A stretch of DNA of 64,000 nt, taken from NCBI RefSeq assembly GCF_003790525.1, contig NZ_CP033636.1. One strand, written 5' to 3'. Made by a program: the position numbers and the translations under genes. This DNA is from Escherichia coli. GTDB lineage: Bacteria > Pseudomonadota > Gammaproteobacteria > Enterobacterales > Enterobacteriaceae. The notes below the pieces were generated by a model. It saw nothing but the letters and a program-made list of their open reading frames with translations, was not told where the DNA came from and ran no database searches. Numbering within the stretch: the first letter of the stretch is position 1; every line of letters starts with the position of its first letter. Below, piece by piece: positions 15,607 through 33,942 of this stretch.

Positions 15607-15630
15607 TAATAATAGTAAGGGTCTTCTGGT

Positions 15631-16450: not shown

Positions 16451-16559
16451 CTTCTGGTTTCATGTTGAACAAAGAAGACCCTTTAGCTTCTGTAATCCAT
16501 TTAATCAGTCTGAATGAAATAGATTATAAATTCTGCTCTGCATACCTGCTTAACCAAAG

Positions 16560-17133: not shown

Positions 17134-20121
17134 ATGGCAAGGAGGCAGATTCTTTCTCTGTCGGAAAGAGAATCATTACTGGCATTACCGGACGATGAGT
17201 TAACGCTGACCCGAATGGCCTATTTCAGTGAGCATGATCTGGCGCTTATCAGTGCTCACCGTAAACCCGCCAGCCGTTTTGGTTTTGCCGTCCTTCTTTG
17301 CTATCTGAAAAATGTCGGCTTTGCCCCGGATAAAAAAATCTCTCCCTCTGATGCGCTGCTGAAGCATATCGCCAGCAGGCTAAAGCTTACCGGGGATCTC
17401 TGGCCTGCTTACCTTTCCGGCCGGGATACGACCCGGCGTGAGCATTTAACCGAACTGTACCGCTATCTTGGCGTAAAGGCGTTCACCGGCAAAATACAGC
17501 AGGACTGTATTACGCACCTGTTATCGATGGCGACGCGCACCGATAAAGGCATTCTCCTAGCCGAAGAGTTACTTGTCTATCTCCGGCAGAACAACGTGAT
17601 AATCCCCGCGATTGATGTCGTGGAGCGTACCTGTGCTGAAGTCATGGCAGGCGGCGATAAAATCGTATTTCAGACCCTGAATGCCCCGTTAACTCCGGCT
17701 CACAGGGATGCCCTGGATCATTTACTTGAGTCATCAGATAATCAGCCTTCCAGGCTGACATGGCTTCTGCAACCGCCGGGTAAAATCAATGGTAAGAACG
17801 TGCTGCAACATCTTGATCGGCTCAGCAGCATTGAATCGCTGGCATTACCTGAAGGTATAGATCGTACCATTCACCAGAACCGGTTGCTGAAACTGGCGCG
17901 GGAAGGCCGAAAGATGAGTAGCCGGGATTTGACCCGATTTTCAGCTGCCCGGCGTCATGCGATCCTGGTGTGCGTGCTGGAAGAAGCCAGAGCCACACTG
18001 ACAGACGAAGTGATTGAGCTGCATGAGCGAATGCTGAATAGTCTTTTCAGCAAAGCCAAACGAACACAGGCTGAGCGCCTTCAGCAGACCGGAAAGCTGA
18101 TCCAGTCAAAACTGAGGCAGTACATCGATGTCGGTCAGGCGCTGTCTGATGCCCGTGATTCCGGTGGCGATCCCTGGCTCGCAATAGAAAACATACTCCC
18201 ATGGGCTGAATTTGTCGCCAGTCTGGATGAAACACGCCATCTCGCCAGAAAAAATAATTTTGACCCGCTGCATATTATTACCGAGAAATACAGCACATTA
18301 CGGAAATATGCCCCACGCATGTTGTCCGCTTTACAGTTAGTCGCAACCCCGGCAGCGCAACCTCTGGCTGATGCACTGGTTGTGATCAAGGATATGTACC
18401 GGAAGCAGTCACGTAAAGTTCCGGCGGCAGCGCCGCTTGAGTTTGTCCCTGAAAGCTGGCGCAAGGTGGTGATTACACCTGTGGGTATTGACCGGCAGTA
18501 CTATGAGTTTTGTGCACTCAGCGAGCTTAAGGGGGCGTTGCGCTCCGGGGATATCTGGGTTAAAGGCTCGCGCCGCTACAAAAATTTTGATGATTACCTC
18601 ATACCCGAGAAGGACTTTGACAAACTCACACCGGCACTGCCACTGCCCGTATCTGCTGATTATCATGAGTACATTACCAGCCGTATGACCCTGCTTCAGT
18701 CCAGACTTGAAGAGGTCAATGCCATGGCTGCCCTTGGTGAACTGCCCGATGTGGAAATATCCGACAGGGGCGTAAAAGTCTCTCCGCTGGATAACTGCGT
18801 TCCGGCGCAGGTTTCACCGCTGGCAGAGCTGGTTTACAGCATGCTACCGCGACCTAAAATCACGGAAATTCTCGATGAGGTAAACAGCTGGACGACGTTT
18901 ACCCGACATTTTTCGCATATAAAAAATGACATTACCCGTCCCGATACCCGCTTGCTCCTCACCACCATTCTTGCGGATGGCATCAATCTTGGCCTGACCA
19001 AAATGGCAGAAGCCTGCCCCGGGAGCACCAAATCATCACTCGAAGATATTCAGGCATGGTACATCCGTGACGAAACCTATTCAGCCGCTCTTGCAGAGCT
19101 GGTAAATGCGCAGGGGAAAAGACCGTTGGCGGCATTTTGGGGAGACGGAACAACGTCATCATCAGATGGACAAAATTTCAGAACCGGCAGCTCAGGCCGC
19201 TACGCAGGGCAGGTTAACCCGAAATATGGGCAAGAGCCTGGACGTCAGTTTTATACCCATATTTCGGATCAATACAGCCCGTTTTACACCTGCATAATCA
19301 GTCGGGTCAGGGATTCAACCCATGTTCTCGATGGCTTGCTGTACCACGAAAGCGACCTGGAAATCAGGGAACATTACACCGATACCGCTGGTTTCACCGA
19401 TCATGTCTTTGCCCTGATGCATCTGTTGGGATTTGCGTTCTGTCCGCGAATCAGGGATCTCCACGACAAAAAACTGTTTATCAAAGGGAAAGCAGAGAAA
19501 TACCCGGCGCTTCAGTCACTGATATCAACGACCAGCCTGAATCTGAAAGAGATCGAAATCCACTGGCGTGAAGTGCTGCGTCTGGCAACCTCGATAAAGC
19601 AGGGAACCGTGACGGCATCCCTGATGCTGAAAAAGCTTGCCAGCTATCCCAAGCAAAACGGACTTGCCAAAGCACTGAGAGAAATTGGCCGCATTGAGCG
19701 AACCCTGTTTATGCTCGACTGGTTCCGCGACCCGGCTCTGCGTCGGCGGGTACAGGCGGGGCTGAATAAAGGCGAAGCCCGTAACGCGCTGGCGCGTGCG
19801 GTATTTATGCACCGACTGGGAGAAATCAGGGACAGAAAACCGGAAAATCAGAGCTATCGCGCCAGTGGACTGACGCTGCTGACGGCTGCCATATCCCTGT
19901 GGAATACCGTCTATATGGAAAGAGCGGTCGATGCCCTGAAGCGTAAAGGGGTGAAGATCAACGAGCAACTGCTGTCGCATTTGTCGCCGTTGGGCTGGGA
20001 ACACATCAATCTGACAGGTGATTATATCTGGAAAAGCAACCGGATACCGGCTTCTGGTAAGTTTCGTCGGCTAAGACCAGCTAAAGTCGAAAGGTCAAAA
20101 AACAGCCTTAACGTACAATAA
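17134..20121 (+). CDS. tnpA: Tn3-family (Tn21-subgroup-like) transposase TnpA, apparently intact
   Basis: 995-aa [44 protein letters not shown]... to ...[45 protein letters not shown]; SD GAGGA upstream; stop inside 38-bp IR. Confidence 0.9.
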   Translation: MARRQILSLSERESLLALPDDELTLTRMAYFSEHDLALISAHRKPASRFGFAVLLCYLKNVGFAPDKKISPSDALLKHIASRLKLTGDLWPAYLSGRDTTRREHLTELYRYLGVKAFTGKIQQDCITHLLSMATRTDKGILLAEELLVYLRQNNVIIPAIDVVERTCAEVMAGGDKIVFQTLNAPLTPAHRDALDHLLESSDNQPSRLTWLLQPPGKINGKNVLQHLDRLSSIESLALPEGIDRTIHQNRLLKLAREGRKMSSRDLTRFSAARRHAILVCVLEEARATLTDEVIELHERMLNSLFSKAKRTQAERLQQTGKLIQSKLRQYIDVGQALSDARDSGGDPWLAIENILPWAEFVASLDETRHLARKNNFDPLHIITEKYSTLRKYAPRMLSALQLVATPAAQPLADALVVIKDMYRKQSRKVPAAAPLEFVPESWRKVVITPVGIDRQYYEFCALSELKGALRSGDIWVKGSRRYKNFDDYLIPEKDFDKLTPALPLPVSADYHEYITSRMTLLQSRLEEVNAMAALGELPDVEISDRGVKVSPLDNCVPAQVSPLAELVYSMLPRPKITEILDEVNSWTTFTRHFSHIKNDITRPDTRLLLTTILADGINLGLTKMAEACPGSTKSSLEDIQAWYIRDETYSAALAELVNAQGKRPLAAFWGDGTTSSSDGQNFRTGSSGRYAGQVNPKYGQEPGRQFYTHISDQYSPFYTCIISRVRDSTHVLDGLLYHESDLEIREHYTDTAGFTDHVFALMHLLGFAFCPRIRDLHDKKLFIKGKAEKYPALQSLISTTSLNLKEIEIHWREVLRLATSIKQGTVTASLMLKKLASYPKQNGLAKALREIGRIERTLFMLDWFRDPALRRRVQAGLNKGEARNALARAVFMHRLGEIRDRKPENQSYRASGLTLLTAAISLWNTVYMERAVDALKRKGVKINEQLLSHLSPLGWEHINLTGDYIWKSNRIPASGKFRRLRPAKVERSKNSLNVQ

Positions 20122-20144
20122 TTTTCGATATCCAAACTGACCCC
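20107..20144 (-). repeat. 38-bp Tn3-family terminal inverted repeat belonging to the tnpA at 17134-20121
   Basis: Reverse complement GGGGTCAGTTTGGATATCGAAAATTATTGTACGTTAAG; differs from the Tn3, Tn21, Tn1721 and Tn5393 repeats present elsewhere in the window. Confidence 0.75.
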
Positions 20145-20403
20145 GAATACAAGGACAATGCCGGTACCGCCTGATTACTTCTGGCGTCGTCTACAATGTT
20201 ACTCCAGGCATATGCTGCGTCGTCCGGGGTTTGTTTTGGATCTATGTCCAATGTCGGCCAGACGTGGCCCTGATGATTCTTGCCCTTTGTACAGGAAGTG
20301 ATTAAGTGTACTGAGCGTTCAGAGAACATTATCTTCCTTACATACCCATAGAACAGCTTTCTAAGAACGGTGGGCTCGGCTGAAAATTACAAATCAGCCC
20401 CTT

Positions 20404-20766
20404 TCACGGCATCATTTTGATTCTTCGCGTCTGCCCCAGTAAGATGACCGGTTTTCTGCATGACAGTGTTATTCCTAACAAACGCAACACAAAACCACGC
20501 CAGCCAGAGCAAATTTTTTCATTTGCTGCGTAAAGCCTATTGTTTTCTCTTTTAAGCTTCGCCCACTCGTTACAGAGGGTAACATCATCAAGCGCTGTTA
20601 TATGCTTCGCCTCACCTTCGACGATAACGGTATGGATACCGTATGCTGTAAATCTCATACTATTTTCCAGAACCCAGTTGCGGTATTCGTCGAGTCCACC
20701 TTCGGAACCGGTAGCTCTGCGCCACATTTCAATTTGCTTGTGTGATGGGTCAAGTGTACTTGTCAT
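20404..20766 (-). CDS. hypothetical protein (120 aa)
   Basis: ORF only; no recognisable motif. Confidence 0.3.
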   Translation of the reverse strand: MTSTLDPSHKQIEMWRRATGSEGGLDEYRNWVLENSMRFTAYGIHTVIVEGEAKHITALDDVTLCNEWAKLKRENNRLYAANEKICSGWRGFVLRLLGITLSCRKPVILLGQTRRIKMMP

Positions 20767-21408
20767 TGAAGCCTCGTCTCAGCGATAACGCTTGAAATAG
20801 CCCGCTTTGGTCATCATGAAATTAGCCATCTGACTGGCGATTTGATTGTATCTTACTCATAGTGCCCTACCTATAGGTTAAAAAGGGGCATTTTCGCTTT
20901 ATAGCGTGTTCAGCAGCATCAATCCTCCCAAGAAAGGCTGGCTTATTAAGCCGGTCCATCATTTTCTGTATATCTCTCATCAATTTTTATATCCGCCCTG
21001 GAGTGCACCGTTCAAGCACACCGATTAGGCAGATAGTCACTAGTTAACTCTTTACTAGTGACTAAATTCCATTGATATACGTGACAACGTCACGTCATGA
21101 AAGCTTTTAAATGCCTATTTTTCATACAATGGGATTTAATTAGGAGTAAATCCCATAGGCTTACATAAGGATGACAATTAAAAGCGTTAAATATCAACCA
21201 GATAGAATGATTACCCCCAATTAATGGGCTCATCACATTATTTCACTGGCTGGGGTTATTGCTGGCATATCTGAAAGTGCTAATATGTTAGTCATTAGTA
21301 ATTAGTAAAGCCTTTACTAAACGCGTTTCTACGTAATTTCTATAGGTTTTATAGTGTCCTACCTTTGCTCAAATCAAAATGTTCTGACATACCAAAATGG
21401 AGTGTAAA

Positions 21409-22227
21409 ATGACTCAAAACCAGGGTTCTGAGCCAGTACCGGCGAGCCGGACAGGGCAGCTCATCAGCGCCCGGGATATGGCCATGCAGAAATTCGAAGA
21501 AGGGATGCGGTTAATCTCGGAAGCGTCGGAACTGTGCGGTCTCTCTCTCTTCACCAGCAGAATTATGCAGCCCAACGCATTTGGTCTTCCGTCGTCACTG
21601 GATCGCACCATCGAGGAGGGGCGTAAGGAAATTGACCGTAAAACGTGGAAAAGGCTCTTTGAAGAAACAGGTATGGACCGGTACTGGAACCATAAGCAAA
21701 AAGAAGCCTTTAACGAATCCCTTCGTACGGATCCGCCCGTCGCTTCCCTGGAGATTGTTAAGGGAACATTACAGCATGCACTGGCTAACAGACGAGACAC
21801 CCTTGCAGAAGGTTTCGTTGATGTTCTCAACAAGCTTGACCGAAGTTTCAAAAGCAATGCCAGGCAATATACAATGCCAAAAAAGCTTGTTCTTCGGGGG
21901 ATTTTTCCTGGTGTGAACGTGCTGAGGTACAACGGTTTCTCGCAGGACAATCACTTTTGTTTACGCGACTTTGAGAATATTGTATGCATCTGTTCTGATA
22001 CTCCAACACCTGCAACCGGCGGTGGGCTGAGTATGGTCGACAGGCTGACGGCCATGAGAAATACAGAATTCACAGGCGAGGTCAGTGATGAGAATGGCTG
22101 GCGGTGTCGCCTGTTTGAGAATGGAAACGTTCATATTTGCATCGACAGTATCTCGCTTCTGAATGCTCTGAACGATCTTATCAGCATATATTTTGCAAAC
22201 CAGCTTCCGGCCGCAGGAAAAAAATGA
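21409..22227 (+). CDS. hypothetical protein (272 aa), first gene of a two-gene operon
   Basis: ATG at 21409 preceded by GGAG; stop overlaps next start (ATGATGA); low-GC island. Confidence 0.5.
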   Translation: MTQNQGSEPVPASRTGQLISARDMAMQKFEEGMRLISEASELCGLSLFTSRIMQPNAFGLPSSLDRTIEEGRKEIDRKTWKRLFEETGMDRYWNHKQKEAFNESLRTDPPVASLEIVKGTLQHALANRRDTLAEGFVDVLNKLDRSFKSNARQYTMPKKLVLRGIFPGVNVLRYNGFSQDNHFCLRDFENIVCICSDTPTPATGGGLSMVDRLTAMRNTEFTGEVSDENGWRCRLFENGNVHICIDSISLLNALNDLISIYFANQLPAAGKK

Positions 22228-23429
22228 TGATTGAAAATGATAAAGAAAAAAGCCTGAACGATGCTACCCCGCCAGAGGTGCAGAATGACATCCGCAGCGA
22301 ATCCACTGAAAAATCAAAGGAAATGGGTCGTTCAAGGTACTCATCTATCGCGATGATCGATTACTTCAATGCAATCGAACGTCTGTGCAAAGAGAAAGAA
22401 ATTAACCCGGAAAATATCGATCTGAGCTTCAAAGTTCACTGGCTCAGAAACGCTGTTGGCGGCTCGTTTGCAAGGTCACAGGAGATGTTCGCGGAGTACC
22501 AGAAGTATGTTAAAGAGGTTCCTGAAGAGGCCCGTTACCTGGATATACCCGATGAGGTAAAGGTTGCACTCGGCGATATTATCTCGTACATCACCTGGCA
22601 CTACCGTAGAAGCTATACCGCAATACAGAATGATAGTGTTAAAAAAGCTGAAGCACGTAGCATGCAGCTGGAGGAGGAGGTAACGCAGCTGTTACAGCGG
22701 CTTGAGCAAAGCGCTACCGATATGGATGAGCTGAAACTTGAGAATCAGGCACTACAGGGTCGATTAGAGATCCGGGACAGTACCGTCAAGGAGTTAGAAA
22801 CAAGGCTGAATGTTGCCGAAGCAGAACTCGAAACCTGCCATCACCAGTTAGATAGCACACGGCATGAATTGAGCCTCGCACAGCAGTCAAATGACTCACT
22901 CTCCCAGCAACTGGCTGAACGTAAAACAGAGATCGCTGGTCACCTTGAATATCAAAAAAAGCTGAACGAAGAGATCAACACGCAGCGTTCTGATAACGCC
23001 GGTCTTTCCAGACAATGCGACCAGTTAAGTCAGACTGTGTCAGATACAAAGGCAGAGAGGGACAGGTTTGAACAGGAATTGATTGCTGCACAGAACCTTT
23101 GTACTGAGCTGAAAAGTGCACTGTCCGGGAAAGAGGGTGACCTGGTGGCGGTGAATGCCGAGCTTACTGAACTCCATAAACTAAACGAGTCGCTGAGCGC
23201 CGACCTGAATAAAGTAACTTTGGTCAGCCAGGGCTATGAAGCGGAAGTGGCTGAACAAAGCAATGAACTCAAAACGCTCCAGGCCAAAGTAATGAAGCTG
23301 GAAGCTACCCTGGAGGCGGAGAAAACAATCTCAGAATCCCTAAAAGGCACCATTGATACATTAACTGGTGCAATGGCAGGGGGAGGTACTGGAAAGTCAA
23401 AACAGCCGCGTAGCAGAAAAACATCATGA
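22224..23429 (+). CDS. coiled-coil protein (401 aa), KfrA-like architecture
   Basis: Long heptad-rich, Q/E/L/K-rich central region (…LEEEVTQLLQRLEQSATDMDELKLENQALQGRLEIRDSTVKELETRLNVAEAELE…) after a globular N-terminus; translationally coupled to upstream gene. Confidence 0.5.
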   Translation: MMIENDKEKSLNDATPPEVQNDIRSESTEKSKEMGRSRYSSIAMIDYFNAIERLCKEKEINPENIDLSFKVHWLRNAVGGSFARSQEMFAEYQKYVKEVPEEARYLDIPDEVKVALGDIISYITWHYRRSYTAIQNDSVKKAEARSMQLEEEVTQLLQRLEQSATDMDELKLENQALQGRLEIRDSTVKELETRLNVAEAELETCHHQLDSTRHELSLAQQSNDSLSQQLAERKTEIAGHLEYQKKLNEEINTQRSDNAGLSRQCDQLSQTVSDTKAERDRFEQELIAAQNLCTELKSALSGKEGDLVAVNAELTELHKLNESLSADLNKVTLVSQGYEAEVAEQSNELKTLQAKVMKLEATLEAEKTISESLKGTIDTLTGAMAGGGTGKSKQPRSRKTS

Positions 23430-23482
23430 TAAATGAAGCCAGGTTGATACACTTCTCTGCATCCCCTGGCACATAAGAACTT

Positions 23483-23507
23483 CTGCGGACATTCAGCCCG
23501 TCCGCAG
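23483..23507 (+). terminator. putative rho-independent terminator after the coiled-coil gene
   Basis: CTGCGGAC-ATTCAGCCC-GTCCGCAG stem-loop followed by GAGTTTTCG. Confidence 0.45.
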
Positions 23508-23708
23508 GAGTTTTCGTCCTTCAGTCAACAAATGCACTACCTTTTTTGAGTCTCCACTTTCCAGAGCAGAAAACACGTTACCGATTCTACCAACAGCTTG
23601 TATCTGAGTGATAACCCCAGTCTTGTAATCATCTAGGATCCCTGACAGGAAAGCGTTCAGTTTTGTCTGTTCGCTTAGCGAAAGCATGTAGGACATTTTT
23701 TCTCCATT

Positions 23709-25028
23709 TTAAGCAGGTGTGTCAGTTGAAAGAGGTTTGCGTGATTCTGGAAAATGAGGCAGCACCATAGTTTCAGATGCTGTGGTCGCATCCCAGTGCC
23801 ACCATCCATAAGGCCCATATTCACGGTTGTAATAATCTTTTTTGAGTTGCTTTCGGGCCAGATAAGCAGGAGTGGCCATACCAAATACTTCCATCGGGAA
23901 CGGCTTATCGCTTTTTGTGTCGAGCAGGTAGAAGTCAGGGAACACCTCACTAATACTCGCATCATAACGCATGGGCTTAACGTACTGCCGGTGCTCTGCA
24001 TCCAGCTTTTCTGCAACAACCGCCTCATAGGAGGAGTCCAGAGGTATCCAGTTCTCGCTAACGTGCATCAGCACAATTTGATGAGCTCTTACAGAAGGGC
24101 CTCTGCCGGTTACCGCAGCTGGTGACGTCAACGCAAAGACAACTATTTTCGCCCCGGATTTCCATGCTGCGTACTCCGATGAAAATCGTTTCTTTACGCT
24201 ATCCCAATGGACTTCTGAATTGAAAAAAATCAGCGGTAGCCCCCCAAAATTCCGCAGGGGTAAAAATTTAAGTGGCTTCTCATGCTTTTCAGCATCGTAG
24301 CGAGGTAAAACTGACAGGAGCATGAGACGTTTATCACTCATCGCCTGTGATGAAAGACGCTGAATTTGCGACTGAGCGACAGGTTGTTTCGGGTCAGGTA
24401 CACCAATGAATAAATGGTCACCTATGCAGGCTCTGCCGGTACGAATTTGTTTAGCGGTTTCAAGCAGACGATACCGTACCAGTGAATCGTTACGTTTCCC
24501 TGCCATTTTCGGGTACCAGACATTCAGACCAGACTCTGTCCACAAAAGACTAAGCAAGCCCAGGAGGGTCATTGAGGCCTGACCTCCTTCTGGTCGCTGA
24601 ACATGGGGCAGGGGAGGCACTTCTGATTTTTCAGGAGGATCTTTCTCTGTCATACCGATACCGAGCCTTACAGCCATATCACCTTCGGTTGTAATCCGGA
24701 CCACACCACTCGCATATCCTTTCAGGCCGGTATGCCGGGCATCAAGGGAGAAGAATACACAGGAAGGATCATGCTCAATGCCCGTGTTAGCGGCTTTGAC
24801 GAGAATAAAGGCATCACCGTTCGGTAAAGCACGAACATAAAGTCGCTTTTCTCCTTTTCCACGACATCCGCAGGTGATGACTGATTTTTGACCTGAGGTG
24901 TGGTGTGCCTTTTTAAGAGCCGACTGCCACCCTTTAGCAAACTCATCCTGCGTTTGAAAGTCAGGTGAATACCTTTTGACGTTTGGATCGTCGTCGTAAG
25001 CAATCATCACTGCGAATTTTTGGCTCAT
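23709..25028 (-). CDS. hypothetical protein (439 aa), last large gene of methyltransferase operon; candidate effector/restriction component
   Basis: SD AGGAGA 8 bp upstream of ATG; contains CGCRGKG and other Cys/His-containing segments; no confidently recognisable nuclease motif by eye. Confidence 0.6.
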   Translation of the reverse strand: MSQKFAVMIAYDDDPNVKRYSPDFQTQDEFAKGWQSALKKAHHTSGQKSVITCGCRGKGEKRLYVRALPNGDAFILVKAANTGIEHDPSCVFFSLDARHTGLKGYASGVVRITTEGDMAVRLGIGMTEKDPPEKSEVPPLPHVQRPEGGQASMTLLGLLSLLWTESGLNVWYPKMAGKRNDSLVRYRLLETAKQIRTGRACIGDHLFIGVPDPKQPVAQSQIQRLSSQAMSDKRLMLLSVLPRYDAEKHEKPLKFLPLRNFGGLPLIFFNSEVHWDSVKKRFSSEYAAWKSGAKIVVFALTSPAAVTGRGPSVRAHQIVLMHVSENWIPLDSSYEAVVAEKLDAEHRQYVKPMRYDASISEVFPDFYLLDTKSDKPFPMEVFGMATPAYLARKQLKKDYYNREYGPYGWWHWDATTASETMVLPHFPESRKPLSTDTPA

Positions 25029-25050
25029 AGTAGTCTCCTAAACAGGAAGT

Positions 25051-25218
25051 TTAATATCCCAACCAGAGCAACACTTCCTGAGCGTCATACTGTTCCTTTA
25101 CGCCCATGTCGCTAAAGAATTCTTCGAAATCTGTTTCGGGAACGCAATGCCTGGACAGTTCTTGTAATGCTCGTTCTTTAGATACCGTCTCACCTTCAGC
25201 TGATTCGAAATACGTCAT
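25051..25218 (-). CDS. small hypothetical protein (55 aa) between methyltransferase and 439-aa gene
   Basis: Own translation of minus strand: MTYFESAEGETVSKERALQELSRHCVPETDFEEFFSDMGVKEQYDAQEVLLWLGY; not in supplied ORF track (below length cut-off). Confidence 0.4.
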   Translation of the reverse strand: MTYFESAEGETVSKERALQELSRHCVPETDFEEFFSDMGVKEQYDAQEVLLWLGY

Positions 25219-25278
25219 GGTTGACCTCTGACATTATTACAACAATCTTAAGCATTTAAATTGATGAAGGAGCTCAGG

Positions 25279-26706
25279 TCAGCTGACTTCGTCGTAAAAC
25301 TGCCGCAAGCGCTGGGAGGCTGCAAATTCAATTCGTGACTTCAGCAGTTTGGCGACGGCCGCAAAGACATCAACGACCACGGAGTTCCCAAACTGTCTGT
25401 AAGCCTGTGTATTGGACACAGGGATACGGAAAACACTTTCCCCGGGTTTATCGAAGCCCATTAGCCTGCTGCATTCACGTGGCGTTAGCATGCGTGGCCG
25501 ACGGTCCATGTTGTATGTGTTATGGAAATCAGTTTCTCCCAGTTCATGAGACCAGCCCCGATCAATAAGAATTTCAGATCCGTCTTTCATATAGCGGCTT
25601 GAGAGGGTTCTGGTGACACTATTAACATTGGAAGGATCTACTAGTCCAAAACCAAAACCATTGCCTTTTGCCGCATGTTTCTTTGCATAGTTGTATAAGT
25701 ACTCCCAGAGTTTAGGGGAGAGGATGTATTTACTATCTACGCTCGGATCCAGTAAATCTGAGAGAGAAGGGCGCTTGTCCGGATAAAAGTCTTTAATGTC
25801 TCTCAGAGTAAAACCGTCTTTCAGACGTAGGTCGCGGCGAAAACCAATAAGGACGATACGTTCACGGTGCTGGGGTCGGAAATGACGGCCATCGATGACT
25901 TTAGGATCATCCGCGCCCGTGCTTTCGCTGTTTGCGACGTCGTAGCCAAGCTCATCGAGCGTTTTCATGATGATGTTAAAGGTATTACCCTTATCGTGAC
26001 TCTTCAGATTTTTTACGTTTTCCAGAACAAAAATTGCAGGTTGTTTTGCCCGGATGATCCTGGCCACATCAAAGAAGAGCGTACCCTGAGTGTCGCACTC
26101 GAAACCGTGTTTGCGACCCATAGAGTTCTTTTTACTGACACCGGCGATGCTGAATGGCTGGCATGGAAATCCCGCAAGAAGAACATCATGATCCGGGATA
26201 GAGGCATCGATAAATTTGTATGCCTCGTCATCAGTAACCTCGGGCCGGTTGCTAAGAGTGATGTCACGGATGTCTGAATTGAAGCGGTGCTCGTTCTCAT
26301 CGCAATACCAGTTCGCCCGGTAAGTACGGCTGGAATAAGTATTCCATTCGCTCGTGAAAAGACATTTACCACCGATGGCATCAAATCCGCTTCGCAGTCC
26401 ACCTATCCCTGCAAACAGATCGATAAAGCTAAAGTGCCTGTCCTCATAATCAGCAGGTCGTGAAGGTATTAAAGTCTGTAGATAGCGTCCATCTGCGATA
26501 CTCAGCTCACAATGCTCAGGTATGCATGTAACCTGACGTTTAAGGGATGCACGGGACCAATTACTGCCATTTTCATCATTTAATACCTGAGCCAGATATT
26601 TCAGGTCATAAATGGTCGAAGCTGTTAACAAAGTTTTGTGGATCAGAGATGGTGTTTTATCCACATCATTCAGGTCTGTCTCAAGATCATGAGTGTAACG
26701 TTTCAT
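25279..26706 (-). CDS. DNA (cytosine-5)-methyltransferase with ~100-aa N-terminal extension
   Basis: Motif [16 protein letters not shown], motif [13 protein letters not shown], motif VI ENVKNL, motif X QFGNSV; ATG at 26706 chosen (longer ORF to 26748 uses a GTG). Confidence 0.85.
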
Positions 26707-26917
26707 CCAAACTCTCTCAGGAATAATATCTTTGAGATAGATTAACACGCTTAATTTGGATTATTTTTTGGTTCAGGTTCTAAATTTATTGTGATTATTC
26801 TGCCTTTAAGTTGCAAAAAGATTGGTTTTAAGCCCGCCCATGAAATAATGACTTGTTAAAATACTGCCTGTAAATAGGCTTGTGGATACATGTCTGTACT
26901 CAACAAATCAAGGTGAA

Positions 26918-27436
26918 ATGATGTTTTTTTTAACAAAGTTACTTTTGCCCATCATGATTGTTGTATTCCCAGTGGCGTCCTGGGGGAACTCAACAACTTT
27001 TGAGGCAAAGGTGGTTAAGATTGTTGACGGTGACACCATAACTGCGTTGGATGCTCAAAACACAACCATCAAAATACGGATGTATGGTATAGACGCTCCT
27101 GAATCTAAACAGGCTTTTGGCCAAAAAGCAAAACAGGCCTTAACCACAGCTATAGCAACTAAAATCGTTACCGTGATAGACCATGGTACGGATATCTATG
27201 GCCGTATGTTAGGTACCATCTGGTTAGATGGATATGATATCAATGCCTCTATGGTGGACAGTGGATATGCGTGGGTTTATCGGTTCGAAGATAACGCCAT
27301 TGTCCCTGGCTATATCAAATATGAATCCGCAGCACAAAAGGAGGCAAAAGGGTTATGGGCAGACACCAACCCTGTCCCACCATGGCAGTGGAGACAGGCA
27401 AACGAAAAGCCCAGAAAGGTGAAAGAGAAGAAATAA
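26918..27436 (+). CDS. nuc: secreted thermonuclease (staphylococcal nuclease / SNase family)
   Basis: Signal peptide MMFFLTKLLLPIMIVVFPVASWG; SNase motifs VDGDT, RMYGIDAPE, YGR, GLW; SD AAGGTG upstream. Confidence 0.8.
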   Translation: MMFFLTKLLLPIMIVVFPVASWGNSTTFEAKVVKIVDGDTITALDAQNTTIKIRMYGIDAPESKQAFGQKAKQALTTAIATKIVTVIDHGTDIYGRMLGTIWLDGYDINASMVDSGYAWVYRFEDNAIVPGYIKYESAAQKEAKGLWADTNPVPPWQWRQANEKPRKVKEKK

Positions 27437-27438
27437 CC

Positions 27439-28335
27439 ATGATGAAAGAGCCTCATCCGTTACTTCAGTTGGTACTAAACGATTCCGGTCGTCTAACCAT
27501 GCCTGTTTATTATAGAGATCAACAGTATTGCCCGACTTGCCTTACAAAGGTGTTGAAGAGTGAGGATGGAAGTTTGGCGCACCTCGGGGAAATAAATCAA
27601 AATACATGTAGACCTTCTATTTCAGTAGTTGTGACAAAAGCAATTATTGAAATGTTATGTGACGGGGAAAAAATATATGTAAATCCAATACGACACCGAG
27701 GCCGGGTGCTGGCACCCTCAGTAATTTTTTCTCCCGACACTCACACTTTCAAACCGTTTATAAATACAGACTATCAGCCTGTGGGAGCAAACTGGAAAAG
27801 TGAAAAGGGATATAAACTCGGTCTGTTTTATCTCAAAGATCGAGCCAACTCTATCAATAAAGAGGAATTTGATTTCATTGCCGTTATAGACCCTGAGGCA
27901 ATGCAGAAAGAATTTATTTCGGCCTGGTCTGAGGTTGATGAAAAAAATCCATTGGAAACGCTGAAGCAGATCTTACGATCTAAAAACAACTCTTCTTTAT
28001 GGGTAAAATGGCCTGGCAAAATTGAGCATGCGCAAAAAGGAAATTACAACGAAAATTACTGGTTCGATTATCAATCTGATAATCAGGAAGTGAACTGTAC
28101 GGTCTCTGTTGTAGGTATCGAAGGTAACAGTTCCGGTGAGACAATTTATAGATTGCAAACTTTGCTAAAGCGTAAGCTCAATGAATATCAACTGGTTCGG
28201 TCTTTAGGAACTATTATGCTTCTTGATAATACCGGGAATATGATTCCATCAAACCATCCTTATTTTGAAGTCATCTCAAAAGCATGTATAAATGGAGTGC
28301 GTGACTTTGTTCGTCAAAACCCGTGGGTAGTCTGA
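27439..28335 (+). CDS. hypothetical protein (298 aa)
   Basis: Starts 2 nt after nuclease stop; no recognisable motif. Confidence 0.5.
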   Translation: MMKEPHPLLQLVLNDSGRLTMPVYYRDQQYCPTCLTKVLKSEDGSLAHLGEINQNTCRPSISVVVTKAIIEMLCDGEKIYVNPIRHRGRVLAPSVIFSPDTHTFKPFINTDYQPVGANWKSEKGYKLGLFYLKDRANSINKEEFDFIAVIDPEAMQKEFISAWSEVDEKNPLETLKQILRSKNNSSLWVKWPGKIEHAQKGNYNENYWFDYQSDNQEVNCTVSVVGIEGNSSGETIYRLQTLLKRKLNEYQLVRSLGTIMLLDNTGNMIPSNHPYFEVISKACINGVRDFVRQNPWVV

Positions 28336-28382
28336 CGGTCAACTATAAAGCATAATATAATTAGTAATAACAAGGAACAGAC

Positions 28383-28790
28383 ATGAATGAAAACTCAGTA
28401 ATCTTAATAAGTTTATTTTGGTTTTTTTTGGGATCGAGTGTTGTAGCTGGTTTTATGGATGCATCATTATATTGCTGGATTTTTGCAGCCATAAGCGCAT
28501 TGTTTCTTCTTTCGGTGATACAAACACCAAAGGAGTTAACGGTATCTATTAGTCATATGACAAGCAAAACGCTGATCTCAAAGACAGATGATGGATACAC
28601 ATTTAGCATTTCACCTTACGGAGACGGGTACCGCTTATCAGTCTCGCCTGAAAATCGTCACAATGGTACCCAAAGCTTTGACGGCTGGTTCCCACGTTTT
28701 TTTTCCGAACCACAGTATGCCAAATCATCTTTAACTAAATTTCTCGGTGAGTCCTTAGTATGGGAAGAAGATTCAAGTAATGCTCTATGA
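28383..28790 (+). CDS. hypothetical membrane protein (135 aa, two N-terminal hydrophobic helices)
   Basis: SD AAGGA upstream; hydrophobic N-terminus ILISLFWFFLGSSVVAGF... Confidence 0.45.
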   Translation: MNENSVILISLFWFFLGSSVVAGFMDASLYCWIFAAISALFLLSVIQTPKELTVSISHMTSKTLISKTDDGYTFSISPYGDGYRLSVSPENRHNGTQSFDGWFPRFFSEPQYAKSSLTKFLGESLVWEEDSSNAL

Positions 28791-28835
28791 GATTACTTAT
28801 TATAAATTTTTCTATTAATCTCCATGGAGTGATAT

Positions 28836-29090
28836 ATGAATTTGGCCTATTTTTTATTTTTGTCTATAACTGTTATGCTTACGAGCTTTATTATTAAATC
28901 ACTTGTCGTATTGGTAAAGTTCAAATTACTTCGTGATGAACGTCTCGAATATACCAGCAATAAAAATATTGATGAGATGTACGATTTAATGAATGCGAAG
29001 GAAGAAATCCTCATAAGGCATCATAAGCAGATGTTGGCATTGCATCTTTCACTATTAATATTCGTTCTATTTATTGCTTACATTTACTAA
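28836..29090 (+). CDS. small hypothetical membrane protein (84 aa)
   Basis: SD GGAG upstream; two hydrophobic segments. Confidence 0.4.
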   Translation: MNLAYFLFLSITVMLTSFIIKSLVVLVKFKLLRDERLEYTSNKNIDEMYDLMNAKEEILIRHHKQMLALHLSLLIFVLFIAYIY

Positions 29091-29127
29091 AAATAATTTT
29101 ATTCAACATTTCAACAAAGGGTTTTCA

Positions 29128-29415
29128 ATGGAAAGCTTCGAAACTGAACAAATGATTCAATATGCTTTCTACATAAATATCGTAATAACGACTGGTTTGG
29201 CATGGTTTTGCTTGCGGTCAGGATTGCATTACAATTTTTTCAGAAAAGCAGAGAGTGCCAGAACAAAAGGGCTGAGTAGTACCTCTACTGAACACGGTCC
29301 AGCAATAGTGAGACTAAAGAAGCTACAAGCATTAGTAGATTTTATTAGTAACTGTGCTTTTCTAATCCTTTCAATTGGCACAGCTTATATTTTGTATGTT
29401 TGGAGCCACAGTTAA
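29128..29415 (+). CDS. small hypothetical membrane protein (95 aa)
   Basis: ATG at 29128 within longer TTG-initiated ORF; two hydrophobic segments. Confidence 0.4.
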   Translation: MESFETEQMIQYAFYINIVITTGLAWFCLRSGLHYNFFRKAESARTKGLSSTSTEHGPAIVRLKKLQALVDFISNCAFLILSIGTAYILYVWSHS

Positions 29416-29484
29416 CTCATACGAGGTAACTTCGGCAGGTAACAACTTCTAATGCAGGACTTTAATAACTCTAAGGGATTCTAC

Positions 29485-29682
29485 ATGAAAAAAGACGATC
29501 TAATTACGCGTTGTAAATTACTTAAAGGCGAACGCGATGAGTCTATCTTTACCATATTAATTGGGATAGTAGTAAAGCTGGGGCTGGTAGGCCTGGCATT
29601 CTATCTGTTGCTTGGTTCCACGATTGATTGGTCAAGCTGGAAAACTTATGCCGCCATGTTGATCTTGGGAGCATTTCTCTAA
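29485..29682 (+). CDS. small hypothetical membrane protein (65 aa)
   Basis: MKKDDLITRCKLLKGERDESIFTILIGIVVKLGLVGLAFYLLLG...; SD AAGGGA upstream. Confidence 0.35.
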   Translation: MKKDDLITRCKLLKGERDESIFTILIGIVVKLGLVGLAFYLLLGSTIDWSSWKTYAAMLILGAFL

Positions 29683-29794
29683 AATCTTGAACCTTTTTTC
29701 ACTCATTACAAGCCATGACCTAGTGCGTAGATCATACGATCTTTAAACCTTATGTCATTGATTTATAAGTACATATAACAAAGATTATGTTAAA

Positions 29795-29812
29795 TACTGT
29801 ATGTATGTACAG
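29795..29812. promoter_or_regulatory. LexA-box-like palindrome (CTGT-N8-ACAG)
   Basis: TACTGTATGTATGTACAG about 200 bp upstream of the 30019 gene; could be chance in AT-rich DNA. Confidence 0.35.
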
Positions 29813-30018
29813 CATCAACAGTTGCCCCCCTCATATTGAGGTAATTGCTACATTCATACCACTATTCTTCTTATAGTATCGACATCCTGAATTATTGCAC
29901 CCTACTGCTTTGTCTTTAGCTGTTCCGAATTAAAATTCATTGCTCAATTTGGATCACATGACGATCAGCGTATTCCTTTGCTTTATCAAAGTTAAGTTTT
30001 TAAAACATAAGATATGTA

Positions 30019-30480
30019 ATGACAAATTCTCAATCTGATTTTCCTTTGAACGATCAAAATTTTCAGGCAGATTTGCTGAAAATCAAAAAGGTTTTCGCCG
30101 ACCTTATAACGCAGGCATCAGATGGTAAGATACCCATAAGGTCTTCTCATGTACACGGCTTACACCATTTCGAGGAGCTCTACATCCGGGCAAGAGCAGG
30201 CATGTGTTCGGTCCTGGGATATCCGGTCATGGTTGTTTCAACTATCTCAGTTAAAGAGCCCGGCACAGGCATTTTTAGAGCGCTTCTTGCAGAATTGAAA
30301 TGTATTGCAGATGAACAAAATTACATTTTGAAAATTGAAAATGTACTGCCTCCCCTATTCCGCAAATACCTTATTCAAGAAGGTTTTGTTTTCCCAGGTG
30401 AACCTTGGATGTGTGGTTCCGGCTATTGGTTTAAGAACCCACAAGTACTTCATGAAAATATTGAGTTATTATCTGTTTAA
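30019..30480 (+). CDS. hypothetical protein (153 aa), possible GNAT-like fold
   Basis: Segment VMVVSTISVKEPGTGIFRALLAEL loosely resembles acetyltransferase motif A; weak. Confidence 0.4.
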   Translation: MTNSQSDFPLNDQNFQADLLKIKKVFADLITQASDGKIPIRSSHVHGLHHFEELYIRARAGMCSVLGYPVMVVSTISVKEPGTGIFRALLAELKCIADEQNYILKIENVLPPLFRKYLIQEGFVFPGEPWMCGSGYWFKNPQVLHENIELLSV

Positions 30481-30509
30481 GTCGATCTAACAATTTCACT
30501 GGAGCTAAC

Positions 30510-30917
30510 ATGTCCCCGGAATTGGTATCAGACATTGCAAGAGTGGCGCATGAAAAGCTACTTTCAATTTTAACGGAGTGCGGCATAGAGAAGACGGCAG
30601 GCACTTGCCTTTTTGCAAGCTATCTTGTGTGTTATTTAGCAAAAACTAAAGGTCTAGATGCTGTTGTCCGTGGGGGTAACGGTGCAGATGATGGCGGTAT
30701 ATTTATAGAGTGTGGTGGCTTTGGCCATTATTGGTGTGAGTTGAATTTCGAAGAAGTGCAATATTATATTGACATCACTTCCGAACAGTTTGGGTTTCAT
30801 CCATACATAGTGAAACTCGCCAACGATATAACAGGATGGCCTCGATATATTCCTGGTGATCAGGAAACGGTCGATAGTCATTTAGAACAATTATTACGCG
30901 ACGGCTATACAGAATAG
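30510..30917 (+). CDS. hypothetical protein (135 aa), possible Cys/His hydrolase
   Basis: SD GGAG upstream; candidate catalytic Cys (AGTCLFASY) and His (GGFGHYWCE); speculative. Confidence 0.4.
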   Translation: MSPELVSDIARVAHEKLLSILTECGIEKTAGTCLFASYLVCYLAKTKGLDAVVRGGNGADDGGIFIECGGFGHYWCELNFEEVQYYIDITSEQFGFHPYIVKLANDITGWPRYIPGDQETVDSHLEQLLRDGYTE

Positions 30918-30967
30918 GCTGCGTATACCCTATCGCAGCCTTTCAGGCTCTTAACCCTTGTGACCTG

Positions 30968-31495
30968 TTAACGGAACCACTCAGGATGACGCTGCCGATC
31001 AACTTTGATAACCTGCGAATTAAATTCAACGACATCCGCTGGAGTAAGCATTAATTCATCAGGATTTACAATAAATGGTCTTAAAACCACTTCGCCACCG
31101 TCTTCTTTTGCACCGTAGATATTAATAAGAAAGTGCAGTCGTTGATTTCCTTCAGCATTGCGTTGCCATTCTCTAAAAGTCAAAGTTTGTTTAATATAGT
31201 TTGTTAAAAGAAATGCGAATTCAGATTCTTCCGTTTGTGAGATACCGATTTTGTTAGACATTTTTTTTAGTATCTTTCCGAGCATGGACACACAGGCATC
31301 TAGACTTAACGATGTTGAAATTTTGGTCGTATTAAAATCCTCCTGCGAAAGTGAAATCATCCATGTATTATCTTTATGATAGTCGGTAATATAAATAAAA
31401 TGAGATGTAAAAGGCGTTGAGTGATTGAACTCTCCTAAGTTCCATCCATACTGACTCACTGTATTTGAGCTAAGTTCTTTGTCGGTAATGTTCAT
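30968..31495 (-). CDS. hypothetical protein (175 aa)
   Basis: ORF with plausible SD; no motif recognised. Confidence 0.45.
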   Translation of the reverse strand: MNITDKELSSNTVSQYGWNLGEFNHSTPFTSHFIYITDYHKDNTWMISLSQEDFNTTKISTSLSLDACVSMLGKILKKMSNKIGISQTEESEFAFLLTNYIKQTLTFREWQRNAEGNQRLHFLINIYGAKEDGGEVVLRPFIVNPDELMLTPADVVEFNSQVIKVDRQRHPEWFR

Positions 31496-31661
31496 AATTC
31501 ATACCTTTCGATAAAGTCTGTAATGATAATTAGCTATCTCAAAGGACCAGAACAACTCTTGAAATAACCACACTCGAAGAATTTATCATATTGAACACCC
31601 CTACCTAATAACCTTGCCGACTTAATAAATCACAATAGCCCTCCCCTGACATTTTAAAATG

Positions 31662-32048
31662 CTACTTGAATTTTTGATAGCTTATGGTTGTTTTATGTTC
31701 TTTGTGATACGCATATGTCATCTTCTCTTTCCAGTACCAATCTTGTAGATCCTGCAAGTCTAGCCCATTTTTCTCACGTATGCTTTCGTGTAATTCGCTA
31801 AGCGCGAGTTTATCATTAGGTTTATAAATGGCTAATTTTTCTTCAAATAAATCCAGCCAACGTTTCCCCATCTTACGACGCAAAACAAACACCATCGTGA
31901 TAAATGTAATGAAATGCACAGCAATTAGTTCCAACTTATGCGATTGCTGACCAGATAAAATTACTATTGTAACAACAGGGATGGCCGTATATAAAGCAAT
32001 CAAAGCGACCATAAGTTGGTATGGTTTTTCCCGTATTACCATGTTCAT
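31662..32048 (-). CDS. hypothetical membrane protein (128 aa)
   Basis: Two hydrophobic helices; start lies 41 bp from the Tn1721 IR so promoter may be displaced. Confidence 0.4.
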   Translation of the reverse strand: MNMVIREKPYQLMVALIALYTAIPVVTIVILSGQQSHKLELIAVHFITFITMVFVLRRKMGKRWLDLFEEKLAIYKPNDKLALSELHESIREKNGLDLQDLQDWYWKEKMTYAYHKEHKTTISYQKFK

Positions 32049-32088
32049 GGGTAAACCAGAGGACGCTACTGCTTGCCAAAATCTTAAA

Positions 32089-32126
32089 GGGGAGCCCGCA
32101 GAATTCGGAAAAAATCGTACGCTAAG
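32089..32126 (+). repeat. Tn1721 38-bp terminal inverted repeat
   Basis: GGGGAGCCCGCAGAATTCGGAAAAAATCGTACGCTAAG. Confidence 0.9.
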
Positions 32127-33942
32127 GTTTTCCGGGCATCCGTAAGGGCCGAAACTTCCCGTCTTCCAGTCTGCGGCTCTGCCGCCAGACGTAATCGCCG
32201 GTTAGGTTGATGTGCTCCCAGCCCAGCGGCGACAGGAATTGCAGCAGCTCGCCGTCCACCGGCTTGCCGGCCTCGACCAACCCCTGGGTGGCGCGTTCCA
32301 GGTACACCGTGTTCCACAGCACGATAGCCGCCGTCACCAGGTTGAGGCCGCTGGCCCGGTAGCGCTGCTGCTCGAAGCTCCGATCCCTGATTTCCCCAAG
32401 GCGGTTGAAGAACACCGCCCTGGCCAGCGAGTTGCGCGCCTCACCTTTGTTCAGGCCGGCATGCACGCGGCGGCGCAGTTCAACACTTTGCAGCCAGTCC
32501 AGGATGAACAGCGTGCGCTCGATCCGGCCCAGCTCGCGCAGGGCCACGGCCAGTCCGTTCTGGCGCGGGTAGCTGCCGAGCTTGCGCAGCATCAGCGAGG
32601 CGGTGACGGTGCCCTGCTTGATCGAGCTGGCCAGGCGCAGGATGTCGTCCCAGTGGGCACGCACGTGCTTGATGTTCAGGGTGCCGCCGATCAGCGGGCG
32701 CAACGTCGGGTAGGCTTGCACGCCCTGCGGCACGTACAGCTTGGTTTCGCCGAGGTCGCGGATGCGCGGCGCGAAGCGGAAGCCTAGCAGGTGCATCAGG
32801 GCAAAGACGTGATCGGTGAAGCCGGCCGTGTCGGTGTAGTGCTCCTCGATCCGCAGGTCGGACTCGTGGTACAGCAGGCCGTCGAGCACATAGGTGGAAT
32901 CGCGGACGCCGACATTCACCACGCGGGTGCTGAACGGCGCGTACTGGTCGGAGATATGGGTATAGAACAGCCGTCCCGGCTCGCTACCGTACTTCGGGTT
33001 GACGTGCCCGGTGCTCTCGCCCCGGCCACCCGCGCGGAAGCGCTGGCCATCGGAGGATGAGGTCGTGCCGTCGCCCCAGTGGGCGGCAAAGGCGTGGCGA
33101 TACTGGTGGTTGACCAGCTCGGCCAAGGCCGCCGAATAGGTTTCGTCGCGGATGTGCCAGGCTTGCAGCCAGGACAGCTTGGCGTAGGTCAGGCCGGGGC
33201 TCGACTCGGCCATCTTGGTCAGCCCGAGGTTGATCGCATCACCGAGGATTGCGGACAGCAGCAACGTCCTGTCTTTGGCCTCGGCCCCGTCCTTCAAGTG
33301 GGTGAAGTGGCGGCTGAAGCCCGTCCAGTCGTCCACGTCCATCAGCAGTTCGGTGATCTTGATGCGCGGCAGTAACTGGCTGGTTTGGTCGATCAGCGCC
33401 TGCGCCCGATCCGGCACCGCCGCATCCAGCGGGGTGATTTTCAGCCCTGACTCGGTGAGGATGGCATCGGGCAGCTCGTTGTCCTTGGCCAGGCGGGTGA
33501 CGGTGGCCAACTGCTCGTCCAGCAGCTGCAAACGCTCTTCCAGGTACTGGTCGCTGTTCGGGTTGATCGCCAGGGGCAGGGCCTGCTCGCGCTTGAGTGC
33601 GGCGAACTTCTCGGCCGGCAGCAGGTAGTCGTCGAAGTCGCGGAACTGCCGCGAGCCCTTGACCCAGATGTCGCCGGAGCGCAGGGCGTTCTTCAGCTCG
33701 GACAGGGCGCAGATTTCGTAGAATTTCCGGTCGAGGCCTTCCGGGGTGATCACCAGCGGCTTCCAGCGCGGCTTGATGAAGGCCGTGGGTGCATCGGCCG
33801 GCACCTTGCGCAGGTTGTCGGCGTTCATCTCACGCAGGGTCTGCACGGCTGCCAGCACGCCTTGCGCGGCCGGCCCGTGCTGTTCCCCAACTTTTCGCTC
33901 GGCGAAGAGTATGAACATGCGCCGCCGGCGACGAATCGCCAA
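32122..33942 (-). pseudogene. tnpA: Tn1721 truncated transposase gene (tnpA', C-terminal ~585 codons)
   Basis: ...[74 protein letters not shown]... to ...[36 protein letters not shown]; N-terminal half absent. Confidence 0.85.

Follow-up and report, generated by a model that had tools for sequence, protein, structure and literature searches.

A 64,000-nucleotide stretch of Escherichia coli contig NZ_CP033636.1 (the window) carries an AT-rich segment, positions 20145–32088, bounded on both sides by transposon ends. This raises the question whether the segment is foreign, as a preliminary description had proposed in calling it a truncated piece of another replicon or island, or belongs to the plasmid that carries it. 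Our analysis makes it almost certain that the segment belongs to the native backbone of a conjugative IncHI2 plasmid of the R478 type and was not imported; it looks island-like because resistance transposons of higher GC content inserted on both sides.

Composition and replicon identity of the segment

The segment is indeed AT-rich in comparison to its surroundings: its GC content is 42.8%, dropping to 36% across 28–32 kb, whereas the flanking resistance DNA has 50.9% (1–20144) and 55.4% (32089–62322). However, sliding 12-kb windows over positions 1–91700 of the IncHI2 reference plasmid R478 (NC_005211, from Serratia marcescens) range from 38.5 to 52.2% GC with a median of 42.4%. The segment is low in GC relative to the transposons only; against its own replicon its composition is indistinguishable.

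A BLAST search against plasmid collections settled the backbone identity at once: in the best 30 of the plasmid records listed, the segment aligned end to end with 100% identity across all 11,944 bp, which identifies it as backbone of the carrier IncHI2 plasmid instead of a piece of another replicon. An alignment of this kind, over the full length of the segment with a known plasmid backbone, was the outcome that the preliminary description had itself named as refuting its view. Among these 30 records typing was checked for five, directly for H1, H14 and H15, and for H2 and H13 as the pNDM33-1 plasmid family. All seven fetched plasmid records typed as IncHI2A/MOBH/MPF_F, and the segment was found in every fetched IncHI2 record spanning the region. 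PLSDB holds 630 records with at least 80% coverage of the segment and 1254 with a match; matches were found in plasmids of Escherichia, Salmonella, Enterobacter and Klebsiella, the majority of them predicted to be conjugative. Since no IncHI2 replication or transfer gene lies within the window, we assign the replicon from the identity of the segment to plasmids of known type; the near-identical pNDM33-1 does carry the IncHI2 replicon and transfer genes. The same DNA occurs in two 4.9-Mb chromosomes too, and the source of the window could be a chromosomally integrated copy.

Synteny persists among diverged IncH-like plasmids. In metagenomic plasmids whose DUF1173 protein is only 61% identical, the SNase, Dcm, DUF1173, coiled-coil, DUF4942 and H-NS genes lie together beside ter genes, and at 42% identity an SNase/DUF1173 pair is found close to H-NS and ter genes. 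The status of the segment as IncHI2 backbone is already known; it is ordinary, well-known backbone, and remodelling of the conserved IncHI2 backbone by IS26 and truncated Tn1721 has been described (PMC9019673, PMC4855149, PMC8407110).

The two transposon junctions

Neither end of the segment is natural, as had been recognized before: both are precise transposon junctions. Other IncHI2 plasmids are uninterrupted across each of them (pHNAH67 and R478 across the left, pCTXM9_020038 across the right) and the breakpoints are base-exact, so both ends represent transposon insertion points in the backbone.

The left boundary is formed by the 38-bp terminal inverted repeat (IR) GGGGTCAGTTTGGATATCGAAAATTATTGTACGTTAAG of a Tn3-family element (20107–20144, minus strand), with one exact match in the window and 0 expected by chance. 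The IR overlaps the 3′ end of a 1009-aa ORF from the ORF list (WP_000124023.1; 17092–20121, plus strand), for which identical plasmids carry the annotation ‘Tn3 family transposase’. Resistance block 1 ends with this transposase gene, which is not part of the segment; upstream, the element is cut by IS26 (matches at 15631–16450). Homology to the uninterrupted backbone of pHNAH67 and R478 begins at 20145 (or at 20142, with 3 bp of chance overlap): in pHNAH67 GTGATTACCT is directly followed by GAATACAAGG, in the window the IR is followed by GAATACAAGG. Comparison of the junction sequences shows that the insertion cuts a 666-bp backbone gene (WP_000490638.1, with a weak DUF6884 match) and leaves its first 185 nt (20145–20329, minus strand); the intact gene is found at L010 2175–2840 in pHNAH67 and at 113036–113701 in R478. 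The reciprocal junction of this insertion occurs in no PLSDB plasmid.

The right boundary is the 38-bp terminal IR of Tn1721, GGGGAGCCCGCAGAATTCGGAAAAAATCGTACGCTAAG (32089–32126, plus strand; 38 of 38 positions, one exact match in the window, 0 expected by chance), which would be the IRR-II end judging from the published Tn1721 structure. A truncated Tn1721 tnpA (32122–33942, minus strand; ORF list and annotation) reads toward the IR, and beyond it follows a module of EamA-family (pecM-like), tet(A) and tetR genes; together with the IR, these features identify Tn1721. Homology to the uninterrupted backbone of pCTXM9_020038 ends exactly at 32088, where AATCTTAAA continues into TACCTTCCG in that plasmid and into GGGGAGCCC in the window. 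The window contains only one copy of the Tn1721 IR and lacks the other target half (TACCTTCCGATGG...); the element is a remnant, and the pattern is not that of a simple complete insertion with a 5-bp duplication. The gene at 31662–32048 begins 40 bp from the IR, in close agreement with the 41 bp given earlier.

The tet(A) end of Tn1721 went into intergenic DNA upstream of that gene, in an old event passed down to hundreds of plasmids; a different Tn3-family element inserted into the 666-bp gene in a more recent event represented by about 51 sequenced plasmids. Both junctions can serve as lineage markers, the Tn1721 junction (at least 617 PLSDB records) for a large IncHI2 clade and the Tn3-family junction (51 PLSDB records) for a small sub-clade of recent origin, to which pNDM33-1 and other blaNDM-5 plasmids belong.

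Gene content of the block

In identical plasmids, RefSeq annotates 15 CDS and one truncated gene across the segment, close to the about 17 ORFs counted before, and predicts no resistance gene within it, again in line with the preliminary description. Most of the genes have been annotated as hypothetical to date. Searches of the segment revealed no function in replication, partition or transfer, and it contains no integrase, att site, flanking direct repeat or other meaningful repeats.

The truncated gene is followed by a hypothetical backbone gene (20404–20766, minus strand) for a 120-aa protein without family match; this ORF is annotated in pNDM33-1 and aligns to R478 113759–114139. A DUF4942-domain protein of 272 aa (21409–22227, plus strand; Pfam PF13708; phrog_38825, function unknown, E=4e-100) is encoded with a 4-nt overlap to the gene of a 401-aa coiled-coil protein (22224–23429, plus strand), which yielded weak coiled-coil-type matches only (SMC, JetC and LmuB coiled-coil regions), far under curated cut-offs. 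In the DUF1173 protein (439 aa; 23709–25028, minus strand), a C53/C55/H86/C90 cluster is invariant and the C-terminal part has a nuclease-like fold of the PD-(D/E)XK type. Between its gene and dcm lies a hypothetical ORF of 55 aa (25051–25218, minus strand), annotated in R478 and pNDM33-1, whose equivalent position is occupied by a 58-aa ORF in diverged plasmids. The Dcm-family DNA cytosine-5 methyltransferase (475 aa; 25279–26706, minus strand) scored 845.8 bits over residues 17–471 against NCBIfam NF007772 (PRK10458, cut-off 710), which places it in this subfamily; scores of 336.9 bits and 683.8 bits were obtained with TIGR00675 dcm and the PADLOC orphan methyltransferase model, respectively. 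Judged by family membership, the plasmid Dcm most likely methylates CCWGG.

On the other strand follows a SNase/thermonuclease-family nuclease of 171 aa (26921–27436, plus strand; Pfam PF00565) with a hydrophobic N-terminus and sub-threshold NCBIfam matches to EcnA and NucI. Directly 3′ of it, an annotated CDS (27439–28335, plus strand) encodes a 298-aa hypothetical protein that has no match in Pfam, PADLOC, NCBIfam or PHROG and a co-located 313-aa homologue in diverged plasmids. Translations and RefSeq CDS indicate small hydrophobic hypothetical ORFs at 28383–29682 (plus strand; 28455–28790, 28836–29090 and 29485–29682), again without family matches. The adjacent stretch 29685–30466 (plus strand), which holds most of ORF 30046–30480, is lineage-specific and without R478 match in the blastn map. 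At the right end (30510–32048) lie three hypothetical backbone genes (30510–30917, plus; 30968–31495 and 31662–32048, minus) that are 97% identical to R478 165579–167182 and annotated in all IncHI2 records fetched, with no family matches. Taken together, the block is non-essential backbone cargo comprising Dcm, a predicted secreted SNase-type nuclease, the DUF4942, coiled-coil and DUF1173 proteins and small membrane proteins.

Comparison with other IncHI2 plasmids and with chromosomal dcm-vsr

In R478 the corresponding backbone lies around 113.5–114.7 kb and 147.1–167.2 kb, with identical gene order and orientation and 95–99% nucleotide identity. The shared genes encode the 120-aa hypothetical, DUF4942, coiled-coil and DUF1173 proteins, the 55-aa ORF, Dcm, SNase, the 298-aa protein, small ORFs and the three right-hand hypotheticals. 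Four blocks are collinear at 95.2–99.1% identity: window 20142–21360 with R478 113514–114733, 21356–28550 with 147143–154337, 28551–29684 with 154868–156001 and 30467–32070 with 165579–167182; the gaps correspond to transposons and an island in R478. At the unoccupied target site TGTCC (21355–21359) R478 carries a ∼32-kb Tn7-like sil/pco transposon flanked by GGTCC duplications, with end sequences that agree with published ones (PMC4855149). In place of 29685–30466 it has ∼9.6 kb with SulP/USP, arsCBRH, an ISNCY element and a serine protease gene. R478 bears neither the Tn3-family nor the Tn1721 insertion and differs in the last 18 bp before the Tn1721 insertion point.

The block could also be an accessory island that the IncHI lineage acquired long ago, perhaps as anti-restriction or defence-type cargo, i.e. 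dispensable backbone of originally foreign origin. The lack of replication, partition and transfer functions, the right-hand GC content of 36% and the lineage-specific stretch 29685–30466 are consistent with this, as are the insertion hot spot (Tn7-like sil/pco, the ars island, Tn1721 and Tn3-family elements, among them an independent insertion in a Serratia plasmid) and DUF1173 homologues in other mobile-element contexts in Pseudomonas. However, the universal presence among the fetched IncHI2 records spanning the region, the neighbourhood conserved in plasmids diverged to 42–61% protein identity and a composition indistinguishable from the remaining backbone mean that any acquisition predates the IncHI2 group, so that the contrast with ‘backbone’ is largely semantic. 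We consider such an origin unlikely, with a small but real chance of being correct. Because 29685–30466 has no R478 counterpart, the block has no known maintenance function and the site is an insertion hot spot, ‘dispensable backbone’ may be a better label than ‘core backbone’.

The chicken E. coli IncHI2 plasmid pHNAH67 (NZ_KX246266) is 99.96% identical over window 20145–33641, including the Tn1721 junction, and carries parts of resistance block 2 (floR and TnAs3 modules) in matching order. Its arrangement is R478-like (H-NS block, segment, Tn1721 remnant with resistance region, IS26, umuDC/tra block). In contrast to the window, the backbone on its left, including the H-NS block and the entire 666-bp gene, is intact; there is no inversion, and a single resistance region lies between the segment and the umuDC/tra block. 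pNDM33-1 (NZ_MN915011 / NZ_CP076648), an E. coli IncHI2 plasmid with blaNDM-5 from duck (PMC8407110), is 99.95% identical over window 19089–64000, a match that spans both junctions, resistance block 2 and the backbone on the hipA side, but its resistance block 1 differs from window 1–19000 and it covers only 73% of window 1–20144. According to its annotation, the IncHI2 backbone resumes in the window after IS26 (61503–62322) with two hypothetical genes and the start of hipA (62323–64000, minus strand).

Compared to R478, the block in pNDM33-1 is plus-oriented and its flanks (R478 185000–173965 and 88497–80072) are minus-oriented. The block and the Tn1721-led resistance region are thus inverted relative to both neighbouring backbone blocks, which explains the isolation of the block; the backbone that once lay to its left, with the H-NS gene and its neighbours, is missing there in the pNDM33-1-like lineage. 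Insertion points and inversion are observed directly, and inversion and deletion driven by IS26 and transposons would have produced the present arrangement, by a mechanism and in an order that we infer.

As an alternative to inversion in situ, homologous recombination or IS26-mediated transfer might have brought the block in from another IncHI2 plasmid, which would make the present arrangement a mosaic. IS26 is known to drive both fusion and resolution of IncHI2 plasmids (PMC8407110, PMC9019673), the reciprocal left junction is missing from PLSDB, and the IS26 beside the TnAs3 resolvase gene of the window has a position and orientation unlike that of pHNAH67. Yet pHNAH67, which belongs to the same lineage, shares the block, the Tn1721 junction and 13.4 kb of adjoining DNA at 99.96% identity, and the fetched pNDM33-1 regions contain a single copy of the block, which makes transfer improbable. 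Capture, by the resistance region, of a piece broken off another replicon or genomic island would fit the transposon IRs at both ends, a GC content below that of the flanks, mostly hypothetical genes and IS26-rich surroundings that could in principle mobilise the block, but was rejected as having a negligible probability: the segment runs on into the adjacent backbone in IncHI2 plasmids without one or the other transposon, is present in R478 and in all fetched spanning IncHI2 records, has a GC content typical of IncHI2 backbone (42.8% versus 42.4%), lacks an integrase, att site and flanking direct repeat, and keeps its gene order beside the H-NS/ter genes in diverged IncH-like plasmids.

The identification as native backbone carries a correction that applies more widely: an AT-rich stretch between transposon ends in mosaic resistance plasmids is often the carrier's own backbone, not a new island. 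The stranded, inverted block illustrates how IS26 and Tn3-family activity fragment the IncHI2 backbone. It is found in over a thousand sequenced plasmids, yet its gene functions are uncharacterised.

As a tentative and rather doubtful proposal, the conserved operon of dcm, the 55-aa ORF and the DUF1173 gene, perhaps joined by the divergent SNase operon and the DUF4942/coiled-coil pair, might constitute an uncharacterised nuclease module of IncH plasmids that is linked to DNA modification. The DUF1173 protein would then be a zinc-binding Vsr/DUF559-like endonuclease that either repairs T:G mismatches at Dcm-methylated sites or acts in restriction or anti-restriction and aids establishment in new hosts. 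The chromosomal dcm-vsr pair of E. coli differs in several respects: the plasmid DUF1173 protein has no sequence match to the Vsr family, its 439 aa include additional Zn-binding and OB-like parts, the 55-aa ORF separates its gene from dcm, and in other plasmids DUF1173 is found without an adjacent methyltransferase.

Identity of the AT-rich segment

The segment at 20145-32088 had been read in the preliminary description as a truncated piece of another replicon or island, hitch-hiking inside the resistance region. A megablast search with this segment against 72,556 plasmid records does not bear out a foreign fragment: it aligned end to end with a known plasmid backbone, and the best 30 listed records each match its full 11,944 bp at 100% identity. 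At least 80% of the segment was covered in 630 records and 1254 gave some match; the matching plasmids come from Escherichia, Salmonella, Enterobacter and Klebsiella, most of them predicted to be conjugative. Replicon typing assigned all seven of the seven retrieved records to IncHI2A, with a MOBH relaxase and an MPF_F transfer system. Against the IncHI2 reference plasmid R478 (NC_005211) the segment falls into four collinear blocks: 20142-21360 (R478 113514-114733, 95.2% identity), 21356-28550 (147143-154337, 99.1%), 28551-29684 (154868-156001, 97.5%) and 30467-32070 (165579-167182, 97.0%). The segment is thus known, widely sequenced IncHI2 backbone: transposon insertions delimit it, and an inversion has left it stranded.

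The description of an AT-rich stretch between two transposon terminal inverted repeats (IRs) that carries no resistance function holds. Both IRs are exact and the GC content is 42.8%, down to 36% in the right third, versus 50.9% in the left and 55.4% in the right flank; the annotation of identical plasmids lists 15 genes and one truncated gene, none of them a resistance gene. However, the segment is AT-rich relative to the transposons only, as it matches the median of 12-kb windows over R478 positions 1-91700 (42.4%, range 38.5-52.2%). No Rfam family was matched at E≤0.1 between 19000 and 33500, and a repeat search returned chance-level pairs only.

The segment was also found in two 4.9-Mb chromosomes, CP066545.1 and CP172494.1. 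There, genes for an isochorismatase and an EamA protein adjoin it at the Tn1721-end side, the same pair that follows the Tn1721 IR in the window. These copies are consistent with integrated IncHI2 plasmids of the type described previously (PMC9019673).

Transposon junctions

Both boundaries are insertion points inside the backbone, exact to the base, so that neither is a natural end, as had been proposed; the sequence runs on uninterrupted in the IncHI2 plasmids pHNAH67 (left) and pCTXM9_020038 (right). Each IR occurs as a single exact copy in the window where none is expected by chance: the Tn3-family IR GGGGTCAGTTTGGATATCGAAAATTATTGTACGTTAAG at 20107-20144 on the minus strand, within which a 1009-aa transposase ORF (17092-20121) ends, and the Tn1721 IR at 32089-32126. 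With one IR apiece, both transposons are remnants, and the partner halves of the two target sites were not found in the window.

At the right junction pCTXM9_020038 (NZ_CP031724) reads ...AAAATCTTAAA followed directly by TACCTTCCGATGG... and continues into more backbone genes, whereas in the window the same AAAATCTTAAA is followed by GGGGAGCCC. In pCTXM9_020038 the gene next to this junction has a longer PGAP prediction of 163 aa, which would span the Tn1721 insertion point. The 18 bp immediately preceding the Tn1721 IR (32071-32088, GCTTGCCAAAATCTTAAA) are missing in R478, which departs from the other lineages here, and present in Enterobacter IncHI2 plasmids.

At the left junction pHNAH67 (NZ_KX246266) reads ...GTGATTACCT and then GAATACAAGG..., whereas in the window GAATACAAGG directly adjoins the IR. 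The Tn3-family insertion truncates a 666-bp gene (WP_000490638.1, with a weak Pfam match to DUF6884), of which the first 185 nt are left at 20145-20329 on the minus strand and which is intact in pHNAH67. In GenBank MF344581 the intact gene is labelled 'tgtA5 cluster protein 2', a name tied to 7-deazaguanine DNA-modification clusters.

Using 120-nt junction-spanning queries against the plasmid collection PLSDB, the Tn1721 junction was found in at least 617 records and the left junction in 51. Because of these counts the Tn1721 junction is the older of the two markers and defines a large IncHI2 clade, within which the left junction, a younger marker, defines a sub-clade. The other half of the left target site was absent from the window and from the pNDM33-1 regions examined. 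Because the reciprocal junction (left backbone half, GAATA and IR) is contiguous in no PLSDB record, the left junction could not be traced to a simple insertion that duplicated 5 bp or to an inversion in one step; in three Serratia IncHI2 plasmids its two halves lie ~450 bp apart. These three plasmids, among them Serratia marcescens pQC07_1 (AP028550.1, about 7500-14550), carry the same 38-bp IR ~450 bp from the insertion point of the window; next to the IR come genes for AhpD, AraC, MFS and oxidoreductase proteins and for a serine recombinase. A related Tn3-family element, sharing the IR but with different passenger genes, appears to have inserted there independently.

Inversion and isolation of the block

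The IncHI2 plasmid pNDM33-1 is 99.95% identical to the window at 19089-64000. When mapped on R478, it carries the 12-kb block in plus orientation, flanked on the left by R478 185000-173965 (traG to umuDC) and on the right by 88497-80072 (toward ter), both in minus orientation. In contrast, the order in pHNAH67 is R478-like: H-NS block, segment, Tn1721 remnant with one resistance region, IS26 and umuDC/tra block. Since the block is opposite to both of its neighbours in pNDM33-1 while pHNAH67 keeps the R478-like order, the segment and the attached Tn1721-led resistance region were inverted in place in the lineage of the window. In this lineage resistance DNA flanks the segment on both sides, and the backbone that adjoins it in R478 and pHNAH67 (an HNH gene, a plasmid H-NS gene and four small genes) is absent at that position, as judged in the pNDM33-1 record at 40000-173285. 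In the window the backbone resumes after an IS26 (61503-62322) with two hypothetical genes and then hipA.

The mechanism of the inversion is one that we infer; IS26-driven inversion, deletion and fusion have been documented for such plasmids (PMC9019673, PMC8407110). That a single IS26 inversion turned a pHNAH67-like ancestor into this arrangement was rejected: relative to pHNAH67, the IS26 at 61503-62322 meets the TnAs3 resolvase gene at a point 316 bp deeper and faces the other way, and the resolvase fragment near the umuDC side in pNDM33-1 overlaps with the copy in the window instead of complementing it. The rearrangement history was therefore multi-step.

Gene content and variable sites

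The segment encodes a DUF4942 protein (21409-22227), a coiled-coil protein (22224-23429) whose gene overlaps that of the former, a DUF1173 protein (23709-25028, minus strand), a Dcm-family cytosine-5 methyltransferase (25279-26706, minus strand; NF007772 with 845.8 bits at a cut-off of 710, PADLOC top model 'orphan methyltransferase') and a protein of the SNase/thermonuclease family whose N-terminus is hydrophobic (26921-27436). The other ORFs gave no match in Pfam, NCBIfam, PADLOC or PHROGs. Apart from the methyltransferase models and coiled-coil noise, PADLOC yielded no defence system; PHROGs matched families of unknown function only, and PDB sequence searches with DUF1173 and DUF4942 returned nothing significant. 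A literature search on the backbone genes of the segment found no functional study.

In metagenomic plasmids with a 61% identical DUF1173, the set SNase, 313-aa protein, Dcm, 58-aa ORF, DUF1173, coiled-coil, DUF4942 and H-NS is kept, adjoining ter genes. A Klebsiella variicola plasmid at 42% identity has no Dcm there, yet its SNase and DUF1173 genes remain adjacent and divergent, close to H-NS/ter genes; at 39%, in Pseudomonas, the gene context is different. This synteny in diverged plasmids supports the view that the module has long resided in IncH-type backbones, and argues against DUF1173 as a restriction enzyme dependent on the adjacent methyltransferase.

Collinearity with R478 is broken at two sites. 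The first discontinuity in R478 is a ~32-kb Tn7-like sil/pco transposon with GGTCC at both flanks, in place of which the window holds the empty target TGTCC (21355-21359), 38 bp before the DUF4942 ORF begins; the end sequences of the element in R478 agree with the published ends (PMC4855149). The second is the ars/ISNCY island and is a second variable hot spot within the backbone: the window instead has 782 lineage-specific bp without R478 match (29685-30466), which include most of a 144/153-aa ORF, whereas R478 and pCTXM9_020038 carry SulP/USP, arsCBRH, ISNCY elements and a serine protease gene at this position.
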